A stretch of 64,000 nt of DNA from a virus. This document shows, piece after piece, positions 1-35,004 of this stretch. Under the pieces are notes generated by a model, which had not been told where the DNA came from, searched no databases, and saw only the letters and a list, made by a program, of their open reading frames with translations. The translations under genes and the position numbers were made by a program. The number at the start of each line of letters is the position of its first letter. The stretch's first letter is position 1. The stretch lies in IMG/VR virus record IMGVR_UViG_3300004369_000008, positions 1-64,000 of that record; one strand, 5' to 3'.

Positions 1-2931
1 ATTTACAATCCATCAATCACTGGTGGAGTAGTTCTTGCTGGAAGTGCAAATTTTGGATTAGACCTTGATGAAGTTGGTGCTGGTGGTGTGGTAATTGCTG
101 GCACGACGACCTTCAAATCTGATGAAGTTGGTGCTGGTGGAGTTCTTGCTGGTGGAGTTGCTAATCAGAACTTCGTCTTCAATATCACTTCAACTGGTGG
201 AGCAGTTCTTAGCGGAACGACAACATTCACTTCTGATGATGTTGGATCAGGCGGCGTGGTTGTTTCTGGCCTCGCAACCAACAGACAGTTAAGTTCCGAT
301 TCAGCTTCGGGCGGTGTGGTTGTTTCCGGTGATGCAGATGAGAGCTTCATCTTCTTTAACGCCGCTTCGGGTGGTGCGGTTGCCGCTGGCCTAGCAAACA
401 TCTATGCAACATACAACCCTGACTTCGCTGGTTATGGAGCGGTTGCTGGTGGCGATTCAACGAGTCAATTCACAGGAAGCCAAGATGCAACAGGCGGCGT
501 AGTCACTGCTGGATCAGGTGAAGTTCAGGCCATTTACTTCATCACTTCCACTGGTGGTGGAGTTCTTGGTGGCACATCTGGCATTGGTTCAACAACTGGT
601 GATATCGATTCTACGGGCGGCGTAGTAATCGGTGGATCAGCAGACGAGTATGTCGTTTACAATCCATCAATCACTGGTGGAGCGGTTCTTGCCGGTACGA
701 CCACATTCAAAGTTGATGAGGTTGGTTCAGGTGGCGTGGTTCTTGCTGGTAATGCAGATGAAAGTTTCATCTTCTTTAACACCGCTTCTGGTGGTGCGGT
801 TGCTGCTGGTCTAGCAAACATCTATGCAACATACAATCCTGAATTCACTGGCTACGGCGTGGTTGTTGGCGGAACGGGCGAGGAGGAATTTACAGGCGAG
901 GAAGACGCAACTGGCGGTGTGATTGTTGCCGGAACAGGCACAGTTCAAGGCACTTATTTCATCACATCAACTGGTGGAGCGGTTGTCGGTGGCATTGGCC
1001 AAATTTCTGGTGAGGTTGACGAATTTGGATCAGGTGGTGTAATTGTTGGAGGAACAACAGCTACAATCTTCGTCTTCAACATCGAAGGATCAAGTGGTGT
1101 AATTGTCGGCGGCGATTCGACAACACAGTTTACAGGTAATGAAGATGCTACAAGTGGTGTAGTTATCGGCGGCGATTCGACAACACAGTTTACAGGTAAT
1201 GAAGATGCTACAAGTGGTGTAGTTATCGGCGGCGATTCAACTGTAAATGCGACATATAACATCTCCACAACTGGCGGCGTAGTCATTGCTGGCACAGGCG
1301 AGGAAGAGTTTACAGGTGAAGAAGACGCCACTGGCGGTATAGTTGGTGGTGGAACAGGAACAGCCCAAGGCATTTACTTCATCGCCTCAATTGGTGGAAC
1401 GATCCTTGGTGGTGACTCAACGAGCCAATTCACAGGAAGCCAAGACGCAACTGGTGGAGTGGTTGTTGGTGAATCGGGAGTAGAGCAGGCCATTTACAAC
1501 ATTGTTGCGAGTGGTGGAGCAGTTACAGGCGGAAGTGTATCGGCTGGGTCTGAAACAGACATCGATTCTACGGGCGGCGTGGTAATCAGTGGTACGTCTA
1601 CCAACGTCAAGATTTATCCTGAAGATGCTACAGGTGGTGTGGTTGGCGGTGGAGAAACATCTGCTGTTTACGACGAAACATCCACAGGTGGTGTAGTTGC
1701 TGGAGAAACAGCAAGCACATTCTTTGTCTTCAACATTGATGGATCGAGTGGCGTGGTTGTTGGCGGCAATGCTACTGCCAATCTGGTTGGCGGCGGATTC
1801 ATTATTGAAGGTGGGGTTGTTGTCGCTGGCGACTCTTCAACACAAGCAACTTACAACATTGACGCAACAGGCGGTGTGGTTGCAGGTGGAGACTCAACTG
1901 CATCCAAATCTTCTACAGATGATGCTACAGGCGGTGTGGTTGTAGATGGAACTGCCGTCGCAGAAAAAGCCACGGTTATTTTGGCTCTTGGAGGCGTGGT
2001 TGTCGGTGGCGATAGTCTCGATTCAATAGAAGTAAGTGAATCTGGATCAGGCGGTGTGGTTGTAAGCGGTGCTGGAAATGTAACCACCTCATCGGGTGGA
2101 GTGATTATCGATGGAACTGCTTCTTCGCAAGCAACCTATGAAATCGGAACATCGGGTGGAGTAGTTCTTGGTGGGCAAAACCAAGGCGATCTGACAGATT
2201 ACGAGTACACAGCAGAAGGAGGGATTGTTGTTTCTGGAGACGCCAAAGTCACAGGCATCAAAATGTTTGTGTATGAAGGCAGTGGCGAAATCTTCACAGG
2301 AGGAACAGCCGAAGATAAAACTGGACCAAGCCACATTGCTACGGGAGGAATCACCGTCGAAGGCGATGCAAACCTCACAGGAACAAAAGATTACATCGTT
2401 TCTGGTAAGGGTGGGATCAAGATGGGAACCAATACAACAATTGTATTCGTGCCATTTGCCACAGGCGGCATCAAAGCAGGCGGCTCGGCCTTGGTCAACT
2501 ACCTAGACTTGAGATATGAGGCCACTGGTGGAATTGTTGTATCTGGTGAAGTTGAAACACATGAGGTTTACCACTACACATGCACTCCAAAGGGATTAGT
2601 AATCATTGGTGGAACAACTGGAACGAAACACAACAGATACACTTACGAAGCATCTGGTGGTATCAAAGTCAGAGGTTCTGCTGACTTCCTCGGAGTGTTC
2701 TTTGACAGAGATTGTAAATTCGTTCATGGATTCAATTGCATTGTCAAAACACCCAATAAATACAGAGATTGCGTATTCCCATTGTACTTCTATGGAGAGT
2801 GTGCGGTATTGGATAGTTGTGAATCTGGAGTGCGTGGAGCAGTTCTTAGTGCAATTACAGCTTGTAGGCAGAAAGGACTGTTGCCAAACGTCAGAAAGAA
2901 ACCAAACAGAAAACCAGTGAGAAAAACTTAA
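1..2931 (+). CDS. Very large Gly/Thr/Val-rich repeat virion protein (fibre/whisker-like); 5' end lies outside the window
   Basis: Frame is open from base 1 (IYNPSITGGVVLAG...). Dozens of ~19-21-aa repeats built on GG[VAI]V[IVL]xG; Cys-rich, basic C-terminus. Confidence 0.75.
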   Translation: MYNPSITGGVVLAGSANFGLDLDEVGAGGVVIAGTTTFKSDEVGAGGVLAGGVANQNFVFNITSTGGAVLSGTTTFTSDDVGSGGVVVSGLATNRQLSSDSASGGVVVSGDADESFIFFNAASGGAVAAGLANIYATYNPDFAGYGAVAGGDSTSQFTGSQDATGGVVTAGSGEVQAIYFITSTGGGVLGGTSGIGSTTGDIDSTGGVVIGGSADEYVVYNPSITGGAVLAGTTTFKVDEVGSGGVVLAGNADESFIFFNTASGGAVAAGLANIYATYNPEFTGYGVVVGGTGEEEFTGEEDATGGVIVAGTGTVQGTYFITSTGGAVVGGIGQISGEVDEFGSGGVIVGGTTATIFVFNIEGSSGVIVGGDSTTQFTGNEDATSGVVIGGDSTTQFTGNEDATSGVVIGGDSTVNATYNISTTGGVVIAGTGEEEFTGEEDATGGIVGGGTGTAQGIYFIASIGGTILGGDSTSQFTGSQDATGGVVVGESGVEQAIYNIVASGGAVTGGSVSAGSETDIDSTGGVVISGTSTNVKIYPEDATGGVVGGGETSAVYDETSTGGVVAGETASTFFVFNIDGSSGVVVGGNATANLVGGGFIIEGGVVVAGDSSTQATYNIDATGGVVAGGDSTASKSSTDDATGGVVVDGTAVAEKATVILALGGVVVGGDSLDSIEVSESGSGGVVVSGAGNVTTSSGGVIIDGTASSQATYEIGTSGGVVLGGQNQGDLTDYEYTAEGGIVVSGDAKVTGIKMFVYEGSGEIFTGGTAEDKTGPSHIATGGITVEGDANLTGTKDYIVSGKGGIKMGTNTTIVFVPFATGGIKAGGSALVNYLDLRYEATGGIVVSGEVETHEVYHYTCTPKGLVIIGGTTGTKHNRYTYEASGGIKVRGSADFLGVFFDRDCKFVHGFNCIVKTPNKYRDCVFPLYFYGECAVLDSCESGVRGAVLSAITACRQKGLLPNVRKKPNRKPVRKT
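1108..1238 (+). repeat. Perfect 60-bp tandem duplication inside the fibre gene
   Basis: ggcggcgattcgacaacacagtttacaggtaatgaagatgctacaagtggtgtagttatc occurs twice in tandem, plus a partial third copy. Confidence 0.95.
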
Positions 2932-3009: not shown

Positions 3010-3333
3010 TTAGGGATTGTAAACAACTCGCACTTGGGCAGTATCCTTTGAAAGTTCTTTGTAATTGATATTGTGGATGATCCTGCTAATTGTCGAAAAT
3101 GTTACACCGAACTCTTCTGCAAGTTCTTTTAGAGTGGCTCCTTCGGATCGCTTTTGTCTTATTTCGTGGGCCTTGTTCGCATCGAGCTTATTGCAGCCCA
3201 TGTTATTCTTTCGTTCAAGAATACCGTAATACTGCATCCATCTGGAAACAGTGCGTTCTGATACCTTGTATTTTTCGGCAGCCATTTGGCGGTCATTGAC
3301 GAAAGGTTCGAGTTTTTCTTTAGGTGGTCTCAT
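3010..3333 (-). CDS. Double helix-turn-helix DNA-binding protein (paralog of 34107..34460)
   Basis: HTH-like segments AAEKYKVSERTVSRW and ELAEEFGVTFSTISRII; likely start ATG 3333 (MRPPKEK), 6 nt after a TATACT box. Confidence 0.75.
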   Translation of the reverse strand: MRPPKEKLEPFVNDRQMAAEKYKVSERTVSRWMQYYGILERKNNMGCNKLDANKAHEIRQKRSEGATLKELAEEFGVTFSTISRIIHNINYKELSKDTAQVRVVYNP

Positions 3334-3413
3334 GTCTAAAGTATAATAGATGTCAAAAATAAAATTCTCGTGCATAACTAAAAAGAACCCCATTTCTTAA
3401 GAGAGGTATTTAC

Positions 3414-3836
3414 ATGGCACTTGTAGTCCCAAATTTAGGTGAGCTTGAACTGTTGGATAAAATGCTTAAAGATGCTCTGTCAGTTGACGAGGATTACATC
3501 TTGAAGCTTTTCCACACAAACGTCACTCCAGATGAAAACTCTGCTGCTTCATCTTTCGTTGAAGCAACATTTACGAACTATGCAGCACAAACCCTTACTC
3601 GTACACTTTGGAACACAGCCGTCACAAACGGTTCAAACAAAGCTGAATCGTCTTACGGTTCTTCCGCTTTGTCTTGGACATGTGGCGCAACTGGCGACAC
3701 AATTTACGGTTACTGGGTTATCGGCGCAACTTCATCCACATGTCTATGGGCAGAAGCTTTTGCAACAGCCCGTGTACTTGCTTCTAGTGATGTTTTGAAC
3801 CTTACACCCAAGTTCACATTAAATTCGGAAAATTAA
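3414..3836 (+). CDS. Small virion structural protein (paralog of 34539..34940)
   Basis: RBS GAGAGG; L.L(F/Y).N..TP...E....YA...L....W....YGY.V......LW.E.F pattern shared with 34539..34940; late-type CATAACTA motif upstream. Confidence 0.65.
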   Translation: MALVVPNLGELELLDKMLKDALSVDEDYILKLFHTNVTPDENSAASSFVEATFTNYAAQTLTRTLWNTAVTNGSNKAESSYGSSALSWTCGATGDTIYGYWVIGATSSTCLWAEAFATARVLASSDVLNLTPKFTLNSEN

Positions 3837-3855
3837 AGTATTTTTCGGAGTTGAA

Positions 3856-3903
3856 AGAAAAGTCCTCTTTTGTTACTCTAGTAGTATCAAGGAGGATTTT
3901 TCT
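3856..3903 (+). promoter_or_regulatory. RBS-sequestering hairpin upstream of HNH gene
   Basis: AGAAAAAGTCCTCTTTG pairs with CAAGGAGGATTTTTCT, which contains the RBS and abuts the ATG. Confidence 0.7.
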
Positions 3904-4761
3904 ATGCGCATTAAAGAATGCAAAAATTGCAAAATGGAGTTTGCTCCAAATGGAAATCAAGTTCATTGTTCTGTCGAGTGTCGAACTGAATTTTTCAGAA
4001 AGCGAGAAAAAGAGCAGAAGGCTAAGAAGGCGTCTGAAGCCAGAACATCAAGTCTCAAGACCTGTGAGTATTGTAACAGCGAGTTCATCTCCAGATTTTA
4101 CAATACAAACAGACAAAGATTCTGCTCTCAACAATGCAAATCAGATTTCCACAAAGACAACAAGACAAAAAGTTTGAAGGGTGAAGCTGATCTTTCACCT
4201 CGGAAATGCCAACATTGTGACAAAGAATTTATACCCAAATTTAACTCAAATCATCAACGACAATTGTTCTGCAAATCTCTCTGCAAAAAGGAATTTCATA
4301 AAGAGCAGACGAGAATTAAGACAGAAGAAGAGCGTGCCAATACAATCAAGATGTGCCCCATCTGTGACAAAGAGTTTTCACCCAAGAAAACGATGAAGCA
4401 AATCTACTGTACGAGGAAGTGTGCCAACTCAATTCAAAAAAGAGTTTACGGCATGATGAGAAACTGTTACAATCTCACCAATTCCACTAAGGCCGATCAT
4501 GCACATGAGGTATTAGGTTATTCTCCGAGTGATTTACTGGAGTATCTGGAGAAGTTCCCTCAGTGGAAGAGCTTAAGAAACCAGAAGTGGCATCTCGACC
4601 ACAAGTTCCCGATCATTGCTTTTGTGCGTAAAGGGATCGCTGATATCTCATTGATCTGTAGATTGGACAACTTGCAGCCATTGGCGGGAAGTGTGAACTG
4701 CAAGAAGAGTGACATATACGACGAAGAGTTGTTTGAGGAGTGGCTCAATAGCGAAAACTAA
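3904..4761 (+). CDS. Free-standing HNH homing endonuclease with N-terminal Zn-ribbon repeats
   Basis: Four CxxCxxxF...(F/Y/H)CxxxC repeats; WHLDHKFP...RLDNLQPL...N.KK HNH core. Confidence 0.85.
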   Translation: MRIKECKNCKMEFAPNGNQVHCSVECRTEFFRKREKEQKAKKASEARTSSLKTCEYCNSEFISRFYNTNRQRFCSQQCKSDFHKDNKTKSLKGEADLSPRKCQHCDKEFIPKFNSNHQRQLFCKSLCKKEFHKEQTRIKTEEERANTIKMCPICDKEFSPKKTMKQIYCTRKCANSIQKRVYGMMRNCYNLTNSTKADHAHEVLGYSPSDLLEYLEKFPQWKSLRNQKWHLDHKFPIIAFVRKGIADISLICRLDNLQPLAGSVNCKKSDIYDEELFEEWLNSEN

Positions 4762-33160: not shown

Positions 33161-33425
33161 AGAGAAGCTTGTTCAATACATGAACAATCCAAAGGCATTC
33201 ACTTTGAAAAGGTGGTTCCTTGAGTTGCTCAAAGAGAGATATGCAAAACACGATCCGATTGTTGAGCGAGTCGCATTGTCTTTGTCCACAGATGCCGACC
33301 TTAAAGATTTTGGAGCTTTAGTTGCAGAAATCTTTGAGGCCGGTTATTTCAAAGCTGTGAATGATTACAAAGAACAAGCAGAAAAAGCTGGGATGCAAGT
33401 CAAAATAGTTTCGCCCAAATCTTAA
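33138..33425 (+). CDS. Hypothetical protein
   Basis: GTG start after AAGGAG. Confidence 0.6.
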   Translation: MANVKEAKEKLVQYMNNPKAFTLKRWFLELLKERYAKHDPIVERVALSLSTDADLKDFGALVAEIFEAGYFKAVNDYKEQAEKAGMQVKIVSPKS

Positions 33426-34120
33426 CTAAAATCAGGGTTGACATCAGACGGGAGTGCTTTCACTAGGAAGCCTCCCGTTTTTGGTTCAATCTCTTCAACT
33501 CGCCACCATCGACTCTCTTTTCTGCGTGGCATGATAACAGAACCTTTGGTCATTGTTTTCACACACCAGAAGACAATCTCTAGGTCGTTTTCATCGACAA
33601 CGACAGCATCAAAAACAAACTTGTCTCCGTATCTGTTCATCTTATATTCTGTTCCATACAGATCATCCTTCATTGTAATCTGTACGACTGGGGCACAATG
33701 AAACTCCATGCCTCGCTCACTAAAAATACGAGCCACTTGAGAACTGACATTGAACTCTTTGACTTCTTCCTTTGGTAGCAACATTGGTGCGCTTGTCTCA
33801 AATTCATCAATCACTGGTGACTCTTCTTCAACAACAGCGATTTCAGTCAATGGCTTGGAAGACTTGAGTTCATTCACGAACTCAAAAGGTGGAATCCATT
33901 CAGCATTGGGACGAAGATCAAGTTCTTCAGCGATATCAATTTGTGGATGCTCTTTCTTAAACTTCTCTTCGGGAGAAACTGGGTCTTTAGCAATCTCAGA
34001 ATCCCATGAGAAATTATGCAGGACCAGTTTGGATTTATCCCAATCCAGAGCTTGGTCGTTCATCAAAGGATTTGGTCCTCTGAGCTTGTAGACCTTTCCT
34101 TGTTTATCACGAATTGGCAT
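33422..34120 (-). CDS. Hypothetical protein; N-terminus resembles 35769..36341
   Basis: MPIRDKQGKVYKLRG vs MGIKNQDGTPYNVTG. Confidence 0.6.
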   Translation of the reverse strand: MPIRDKQGKVYKLRGPNPLMNDQALDWDKSKLVLHNFSWDSEIAKDPVSPEEKFKKEHPQIDIAEELDLRPNAEWIPPFEFVNELKSSKPLTEIAVVEEESPVIDEFETSAPMLLPKEEVKEFNVSSQVARIFSERGMEFHCAPVVQITMKDDLYGTEYKMNRYGDKFVFDAVVVDENDLEIVFWCVKTMTKGSVIMPRRKESRWWRVEEIEPKTGGFLVKALPSDVNPDFS

Positions 34121-34460
34121 GTTTGTATCCTAACTTCACATCTGCTTCACCGCCAATTACAAAACTTGTAATGTTTCGGTGAATGCTATTGTTGACAATT
34201 TTGCTGATGAGTGACTGACTCACTTGGTATTTATCCGCCAGTTCAGTTTGCGTGTATTCTTTCGTTTGATACAAGGTGCGTATCTCGCCCACTTGTAGGC
34301 TTTCCAATCTATCCAAACCGAAGTTTGTGAGTCCATTAGCTTTCAAAACTCGATTGAGAGTTCTTCTACTAATATGGAACTGTTCGCAGACTTCTTGTCG
34401 TGATTTCTCAGAAACTAATAGCTTGAGGTCGTTTATGTTCAAATCTCTTATTTTGGCCAT
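34107..34460 (-). CDS. Double HTH DNA-binding protein (paralog of 3010..3333)
   Basis: EVCEQFHISRRTLNRVL; TQTELADKYQVSQSLISKIVNN. Confidence 0.8.
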   Translation of the reverse strand: MAKIRDLNINDLKLLVSEKSRQEVCEQFHISRRTLNRVLKANGLTNFGLDRLESLQVGEIRTLYQTKEYTQTELADKYQVSQSLISKIVNNSIHRNITSFVIGGEADVKLGYKHANS

Positions 34461-34538
34461 TTGTAATACACCTGAAATTATTCAAATGAGACACCATATA
34501 TAAGAGTCCAAGGATTCAATTCCCGAAAGAGGTAAAAT

Positions 34539-34940
34539 ATGGCACTTGTATGTCCCGATGTTAAAGGTGAGATTCTTCTCCTGCAATACATTGTTGGTAT
34601 GGTAAATGCTGACAATCCCGTTCTCCATTTGTATGGTAACGACATAACTCCATCTGATTCTACAGTCATTGGCGATTTGACCGAGGTTGCTGGTGCAACT
34701 GGGTATGCGTCAGTTACTCTGCTGTCAGCAAACTGGACAACTACTCAATCTGCTGGTGTGACCACGGCTGTTTACTCTGAGCAGACATTCACATTCACGA
34801 CAGATGCGACTTCTTATGGATACTACGTTACAGACGAGAGTAACAACTTGCTGTGGCTTGAGAGATTCAGCGGCGCACCGTTTGATATACCTGATGGTGG
34901 AGGTACGATCAGTATTACGGCTAAGCTGACGCTTAGCTAA
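34539..34940 (+). CDS. Small virion structural protein (paralog of 3414..3836)
   Basis: MALVCP..GE..LL; LHLYGNDITP; GYA...L....W; YGYYV; LWLERF; CATATATA upstream. Confidence 0.65.
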   Translation: MALVCPDVKGEILLLQYIVGMVNADNPVLHLYGNDITPSDSTVIGDLTEVAGATGYASVTLLSANWTTTQSAGVTTAVYSEQTFTFTTDATSYGYYVTDESNNLLWLERFSGAPFDIPDGGGTISITAKLTLS

Positions 34941-34968: not shown

Positions 34969-35004
34969 AAAAAAGCCCAGTCATTTCTGACTGGGCTTTT
35001 TTTT
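34969..35004. terminator. Bidirectional intrinsic terminator
   Basis: AAAAAAGCCCAGTCA-TTTC-TGACTGGGCTTTTTTTT. Confidence 0.9.

Follow-up and report, generated by a model that had tools for sequence, protein, structure and literature searches.

The DNA analyzed here, referred to as the window, is a stretch of 64,000 nucleotides that forms the first 64 kb of an IMG/VR virus record of 73,986 bases. The window encodes a tail sheath, a T4-type baseplate protein, an RNA ligase, NAD salvage enzymes and a CCA-adding enzyme. On account of this gene content, the source phage is a very large T4-like myovirus, known from metagenomes alone. The completeness of the 74-kb record was estimated by CheckV as 15% and, if this value is extrapolated, the source genome possibly reaches several hundred kb. 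Searches of the GenBank phages with 2.1 kb of the window DNA and with the first of the two small proteins described below (small1) gave no match. The features on which the analysis is centered are the following.

1 to 2931, plus strand: 3' part of the gene of a repeat protein (976 aa), cut by the contig end; delimited from the ORF and the repeat register.
3010 to 3333, minus strand: HTH1, a nuclease-free double-HTH protein with the conserved tail ...DTAQVRVVYNP; the start is the probable one, placed at the orthologue start Met, and the longest ORF extends to 3393.
3334 to 3413, no strand: divergent intergenic region between HTH1 and small1, 80 bp.
3414 to 3836, plus strand: small1, a predicted bead-type fibre/whisker subunit of 140 aa, paralogue of small2, with its fold assigned via homology to small2.
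3904 to 4761, plus strand: HNH-type endonuclease-like gene with zinc-ribbon repeats, downstream of small1 (phrog_1271, E 9e-14).
33422 to 34120, minus strand: p33422m, a conserved 232-aa gene of no known family, the constant divergent partner of small2 in relatives.
34107 to 34460, minus strand: HTH2, a nuclease-free double-HTH protein with the tail ...VIGGEADVKLGYKHANS, first gene of a leftward unit; identified from the ORF, Pfam and paralogy.
34461 to 34538, no strand: intergenic region between HTH2 and small2, 78 bp, with a TATATAA box at 34494-34506 and an RBS.
34539 to 34940, plus strand: small2, a predicted bead-type fibre/whisker subunit of 133 aa, from the model and its homologues.

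A divergent module composed of an HTH gene and a small gene had been reported to occur twice, and both ORF pairs are confirmed. The HTH1 ORF (3010-3393) and the HTH2 ORF (34107-34460), both on the minus strand, are each divergent from a plus-strand gene that encodes 140 or 133 aa. Both partners are paralogous: HTH1 and HTH2 share 30% identity (E 4e-10), and small1 and small2 share 30% identity over their full length (E 4e-11). The HTH gene and the small gene are present in two copies each, and no more, in the 74-kb record. The coding region of HTH1 is probably 3010-3333 rather than 3010-3393, because the orthologues start at a Met matching M21 of the HTH1 ORF. The end of HTH2 overlaps the start of p33422m by 14 nt, and the tail sheath gene is placed three genes downstream of small2. 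A set of 65 related loci was collected by scans with both small proteins.

Several details of the surroundings may be recorded. The small1 gene and the HNH-type gene downstream (3816-4761) share an LNSEN ending, which is not repeated in the L006 or L009 homologues of the HNH-type gene; the match may be coincidental or specific to the window. Homologues of this HNH-type gene are present in L006 and L009 and absent in L005 and L007. Nearly all relatives have p33422m beside small2. The N-terminus of this protein is conserved (G-K-x-Y-x-L-R-G-P-N-P-L-M), and its look-up in the ESM Atlas gave weak leads; the protein is a candidate for the collar or rope that would partner the small2 bead. A strong terminator-like hairpin (34969-35002, 15 pairs and a T run) follows directly after small2. 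Relatives differ in the length and content of the interval between small2 and p35769, which may be a second variable slot.

The model of small2, obtained with 32 homologues (pLDDT 86), has a strand at residue 4 and a helix spanning residues 10-18 in addition to a beta-sandwich, and conforms to the bead fold (N-terminal strand, helix and incomplete beta-sandwich, in proteins of about 107-171 aa). These conserved elements agree with how the whisker protein has been described (PMC12609058). The model resembles GP4 Fiber I (8jou_a; Z 9.0, rmsd 2.8 over 112 residues, 112 of 136 aligned), the Bas63 whisker gp5 (9mt4_K; Z 8.8, rmsd 2.6 over 98 residues), the Sf14 neck protein (9c39_K; Z 8.4) and parts of T4-type baseplate proteins (Z 9.3), with Z values just moderately above the usual background of 7-8. 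Of the ten top structural matches, nine belong to the tail, neck or fibres of phages. Foldseek returns weak E-values (4e-3 to 2e-2), and predicted structures of tail-collar-fibre and minor-tail proteins in BFVD match small2 with E-values down to 1e-5. As judged from the model, small1 and small2 are best explained as beads of a chain-like fibre or of a neck whisker.

In phages with chain-like fibres or whiskers, a 'rope' polypeptide runs through the bead dimers (PMC12609058, PMC13730344). The GP4 Fiber I protein gp80 forms beads on a separate rope (PDB 8JOU), and the gp5 whiskers of Bas63 are carried by the rope domain of the collar (PDB 9MT4, PMC12609058), which completes the incomplete sandwiches of the threaded dimers (PMC12609058). 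In A1002, the two paralogous beads gp40 and gp41 form 11 dimers on one nozzle-rope protein through sheet augmentation (PMC13730344). Following the predicted fold, small1 and small2 are probably virion fibre subunits that assemble on an extended template by beta-strand completion. The preliminary description had proposed a subunit that builds a fibre on a repeat template, and the bead fold supports this kind of assembly (Z 8.4-9.0); the mechanism, believed there to be new, had already been described. The Bas63 whisker dimers pair via their first five residues and the N-terminal helices (PMC12609058), and the near-invariant N-terminus of the small-protein family (M-A-L-V-x-P) would fit a role in whisker-type dimer pairing.

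A cyanophage relative of small2 is encoded by the Synechococcus phage S-SCSM2R (locus L080, 86122-87129). This protein of 335 aa is annotated as 'tail fiber rope protein' and its first ~140 residues resemble small2. The gene neighbours of this relative encode a tail adaptor, an L-shaped tail fibre and a 'large exoprotein' of more than 3000 aa.

The repeat protein upstream of the first module contains about 46-48 tandem units of ~20 aa, rich in G and V, with the consensus DATGGVVVGGTATTQFTYNI. Its residues ~860-976 (2575-2931) form a Cys-rich, basic C-terminal domain distinct from the repeats; a related stand-alone ORF of 164 aa is found directly upstream of the HTH/small1 pair in G001 (200102-200380). 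No Pfam or PHROG family was found for the repeat protein, and its ESM Atlas model is of low confidence (pLDDT 0.51), with weak leads. The repeat protein ends 483 bp upstream of small1 and abuts the small1 module, as is also the case in one related record. In three of five related records, a related repeat ORF is found no farther than about 2 kb from the small1 orthologue. At least four ORFs of 500-650 aa with the same G/V-rich repeats of ~20 aa occur in G001, the 245-kb record of L005 (L070, L073 and L075 are examples). Since these are separate repeat ORFs, the repeat proteins form a multigene family.

The repeat protein is a candidate for a fibre rope or for a self-standing fibre. The docking domain of A1002, which carries 11 dimers, comprises residues 243-468, 3-32 and 96-107 (PMC13730344); the ~20-24 residues per dimer derived from these limits are close to the period of 20 aa observed here. 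The predicted complex of two small1 chains with residues 402-481 of the repeat protein, run without controls, obtained a score of 0.27, under the mark of 0.32, and weighs neither for nor against the rope reading. The assignment of the repeat protein as the rope of the neighbouring bead is tentative, and we consider it a little less probable than its opposite. No rope candidate was identified for small2.

The tails of both HTH proteins had been described as aligning in register with this repeat. The quoted alignments are accurate: the HTH2 tail shares 7 of 12 positions with residues 209-220 of the repeat protein, and the HTH1 tail 6 of 10 with residues 213-222. Both best matches concern a single repeat copy, residues 205-224, out of about 48. 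With shuffled tails, 6 of 300 trials attain the score of the real HTH1 tail (20 aa) and 46 of 300 that of the HTH2 tail (26 aa). In a position matrix derived from 22 canonical units of 20 aa, true units obtain 28-52 bits, and the tails of HTH1, HTH2 and 13 orthologues -2.6 to -14.8 bits. The background, measured on 25-aa windows of the phage's other proteins, has a mean of -9 and a 95th percentile of 0. The matrix scores lie inside this background. The similarity is not above chance, and the resemblance appears to be not more than a chance match between short, G/V/Y-rich, strand-like peptides. The part of the earlier claim that relied on similarity beyond shuffled controls is therefore lost.

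The circuit built on these alignments held that the tail imitates the rope repeat, that free bead binds the tail and that transcription is then switched, so that expression is coupled to assembly. Bead folds do complete their incomplete sandwich with extended strands (PMC12609058, PMC13730344), and the tail, which the monomer model leaves unstructured, is conserved and strand-like. On the other hand, the tails score as background on the repeat profile, with a single-copy match within the shuffle range, and 31 kb separate HTH2 and small2 from the repeat protein. Two further observations, developed below, count against the circuit: the tail is equally conserved on LAGLIDADG nucleases, where an assembly sensor has no evident use, and most relatives keep the bead gene and its promoter-like region without the HTH gene. 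Taken with the fact that every tail-bearing HTH found adjoins a bead gene, which would favour it, the assembly-coupled autoregulatory circuit is nevertheless very improbable.

The HTH proteins themselves point in another direction. Pfam HTH families match two separate regions in each of HTH1 and HTH2, and no nuclease family of Pfam matches either protein. In the AF2 model of HTH2, two bundles of three helices precede the tail, which is unstructured (residues 90-117, pLDDT 53-62). The tail motif is G-x-A-x-V-K-x-G-Y-K-x-G-N in the HTH2 type and D-T-A-x-V-x-V-V-Y-N in the HTH1-type variant. Loss of the tail in orthologues would have spoken against the proposed circuit, and the tail is in fact conserved in every HTH orthologue; across the 15 orthologues the A is invariant and the V nearly so. 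In a search of solved structures with the HTH profile, the matches cover the HTH alone, and the tail is present in none. The tail is likewise conserved on the nuclease forms described below, which suggests that it plays a part in DNA binding.

The wider family connects these proteins with homing endonucleases. A profile of the HTH module matches 34,642 proteins, mostly tandem HTH units without the tail, and sampled matches carry GIY-YIG, HNH_3 and NUMOD3. The best PHROG matches of the HTH proteins include HNH and homing endonucleases, and 13 of the 16 tblastn matches in GenBank phages lie under annotated HNH endonucleases. Weak matches to the late-activator PHROGs 836 and 532 were also obtained. 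Word-based searching for fused relatives of greater length gave none with HTH2 and only two proteins with the L033 module. An assignment of HTH1 to the Mor/C-type late activators (PF08765) was rejected: the match reaches 21.0 bits, below the gathering cut-off of 24.9, and covers the HTH alone.

The gene order around small2 is conserved among the related phages: p33108, p33422m on the minus strand, a slot, small2 on the plus strand, p35769, p36492 and the sheath gene. The slot is ~75 bp long and empty in most small2 relatives. In the others it contains an HTH-only gene of 72-139 aa, a gene of ~290 aa or an HNH-type gene homologous to that at 3904-4761 (L039, L050). An HTH gene is found upstream of the bead gene in a minority of the 65 related loci, including three of the eight small1 loci. 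The divergent linkage expected by the preliminary description is thus largely missing, with the HTH gene absent from most small2 loci and from five of the eight small1 loci. The bead gene of locus L008 is preceded, at a distance of 9 nt, by the end of a PhoH-like gene in the same orientation. At locus L081, beside the P0143 HTH gene, the bead gene is present as a 74-aa ORF (2482-2706, minus strand) that matches residues 11-78; the short ORF may reflect a break in the gene or a fault of the assembly.

The longer slot genes carry the nuclease. Those of L024, L033, L079 and L082, together with protein P0002, encode 287-293 aa and possess the same C-terminal HTH and tail; the LAGLIDADG_2 family matches with E 5e-27 in L024 and E 2e-31 in L033. 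The 73-aa single-HTH forms are the sisters of the LAGLIDADG forms. In L079 (2986-3858, plus strand), the LAGLIDADG, HTH and tail gene in the bead slot reads LLGGG where the relatives have LLGDG, a change that points to loss of the catalytic Asp as a putative step in degeneration.

The boundaries of the slot are sharp. The ~70 bp that precede the bead gene, which include a TATATAA-type box and an RBS, can be aligned whether the slot is occupied or empty. The leftward start codon is that of the inserted gene when the slot is occupied and that of p33422m when it is empty, and the inserted gene overlaps p33422m by 11-44 nt. The best explanation of these alignments is that the bead genes would be expressed from their own conserved promoter-like box, with the HTH gene present or not. 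Neither direct or inverted repeats nor palindromes were found in 3334-3413 and 34461-34538, and scans for sigma-70-type promoters remained at chance level. The motif YTAWATAAG occurs three times in the window and, with this number of occurrences, was rejected as a general promoter signal.

The optional insert, the homologous flanks and the overlap with p33422m reproduce the pattern of the free-standing homing endonuclease genes of T4-like phages, which are intergenic, lie between conserved genes and often use host promoters (PMC2988022). HTH1 and HTH2 are likely, in our assessment, to be nuclease-free members of a homing-endonuclease lineage that occupies one fixed intergenic slot immediately upstream of a fibre-bead gene. 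Their HTH unit shares homology with the DNA-binding repeats found in homing endonucleases of the GIY-YIG, HNH or LAGLIDADG type, and they occur sporadically, at a single fixed position flanked by conserved genes. Slot-mates in related phages combine the HTH unit with a nuclease domain but HTH1 and HTH2 do not, and for this reason the two proteins are classified as nuclease-free relatives and not as endonucleases. The absence of this domain also weighs against the assignment itself.

Within this lineage, the shared C-terminal unit (one HTH and the tail) would act as the site-specific DNA-binding module. The unit appears fused to a LAGLIDADG nuclease in some relatives and to a second HTH in others, as here, and stands alone as a 72-73-aa remnant in further relatives. 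The most likely DNA target of HTH1 and HTH2 lies at their own insertion site or close to it. Such binding could repress or tune the divergent promoters, in the manner of the DNA-binding domain of I-TevI, or alternatively could shield the site from related nucleases. Without a nuclease domain, HTH1 and HTH2 cannot home alone. The domain exchange may have run in either direction, with the nuclease lost or gained.

The main rival is that the HTH proteins are resident regulators of the divergent bead and p33422m promoters, co-duplicated with the bead gene, and that the LAGLIDADG nuclease captured the module later. The paralogy of both module partners is consistent with it, as are the weak late-activator PHROG matches and the location of all tail-bearing HTHs found at bead loci, since an invariable adjacency to the bead gene is expected of a dedicated partner as much as of a site-specific element. 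The HTH tree is compatible with a split into a small1 side and a small2 side (57% support), and for this reason transfer between the two slots is not argued. No discordance between the HTH and bead gene trees was found in the scan. The split does not contradict co-duplication and would also be expected if a resident gene had been co-duplicated long ago, without repeated invasion, which counts against the homing-lineage origin. The distribution of the gene speaks otherwise: it is missing at most related loci, where the promoter-like region is retained, and its presence on the bead tree requires at least five changes, whether gains or losses. The truncated forms of 72-73 aa and the HNH-type occupant of the slot fit the life cycle of an endonuclease better. 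Likewise, the Mor family match remains below the Pfam cut-off, and a repeat or palindrome is lacking in both intergenic regions. A dedicated resident regulator is consequently regarded as unlikely, although it deserves more weight than any other alternative considered here.

Selection on the HTH genes bears on this rival as well as on the question of whether the genes still function. Their pN/pS is 0.22-0.51 at saturated pS, compared with 0.05-0.26 for the bead genes and p35769 and 0.35-0.50 for p33422m, and the HTH-only genes evolve several times faster than the bead genes. Between the HTH genes of L030 and L032, pN is 0.16 and pS 0.75 (saturated). As read from these substitution patterns, HTH1 and HTH2 are kept by purifying selection, which a resident regulator would also show, and the HTH-only genes are not pseudogenes, because pN is far below the saturated pS. 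The genes could otherwise be functionless, decaying remnants of homing endonuclease genes. The relatives offer a series of degeneration (290 aa, 139 aa, 95 aa and 72 aa), the LLGGG of L079 replaces LLGDG, and the slot is empty in many of them. The reading frames are nevertheless intact in many diverged lineages, the residues of the HTH and of the tail are conserved, and pN stays well below pS, so that plain decay is highly unlikely.

A weakened form of the assembly circuit is compatible with a homing-endonuclease lineage. The tail of the HTH module would dock in the open sandwich of the bead as the rope does, and the abundance of bead late in infection would switch off the DNA-binding protein or the homing nuclease. 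This proposal draws only on the invariable adjacency of HTH and bead genes and on the strand-capturing habit of the beads, and we give it little credence. If true, the docking of the tail on the bead would be a previously undescribed coupling of virion assembly to mobile-element activity. As it stands, the circuit in which a regulator mimics a fibre seems to be a false lead, a short chance match laid over an ordinary mobile-element pattern, and three results speak against it: the tail is off the repeat profile, the HTH gene is absent at most loci and the module is also carried by LAGLIDADG nucleases.

Compared with the solved fibres, the small proteins match GP4 gp80, Bas63 gp5 and A1002 gp40/gp41 in bead fold and size (107-171 aa). 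The presence of two paralogous beads in one phage is shared with A1002. Unlike in the solved bead-rope systems, the two bead genes are 31 kb apart and the host is a very large myovirus. The candidate rope would offer at least 46 sites, whereas the solved cases have 2 to 11. Two paralogous bead genes would be added to the recently described beads-on-a-rope fibres and, if the repeat protein is confirmed as a rope of at least 46 repeats, the design would extend to a very large myovirus and to much greater fibre lengths.

The slot genes are comparable to the seg and mob genes of T4-like phages (PMC2988022), which are also optional intergenic genes, patchy among relatives, and modular, with a nuclease and a C-terminal HTH-type DNA-binding region. 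As with seg and mob, the promoter of the host gene is often used and the next gene is overlapped. In contrast with the GIY-YIG and HNH types of T4, the nuclease of the slot relatives is of the LAGLIDADG type. The copies in the window differ from seg and mob by a second HTH in place of the nuclease, and the module ends in a conserved tail that is absent from the solved structures searched. A probable LAGLIDADG/HTH homing-endonuclease lineage tied to one bead-gene slot is documented in very large environmental phages. Precedents exist for endonuclease-type modules that regulate without cutting: the DNA-binding domain of I-TevI is by itself a repressor (PMC2988022), and WhiA is a LAGLIDADG-derived regulator with a C-terminal HTH (PMC3240954). 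By likeness to these two proteins, the regulatory role of HTH1 and HTH2 is putative. WhiA retains a degenerate LAGLIDADG domain, whereas HTH1 and HTH2 have none, and the selected, nuclease-free double-HTH derivatives would offer a usable case for the recycling of endonuclease DNA-binding modules.
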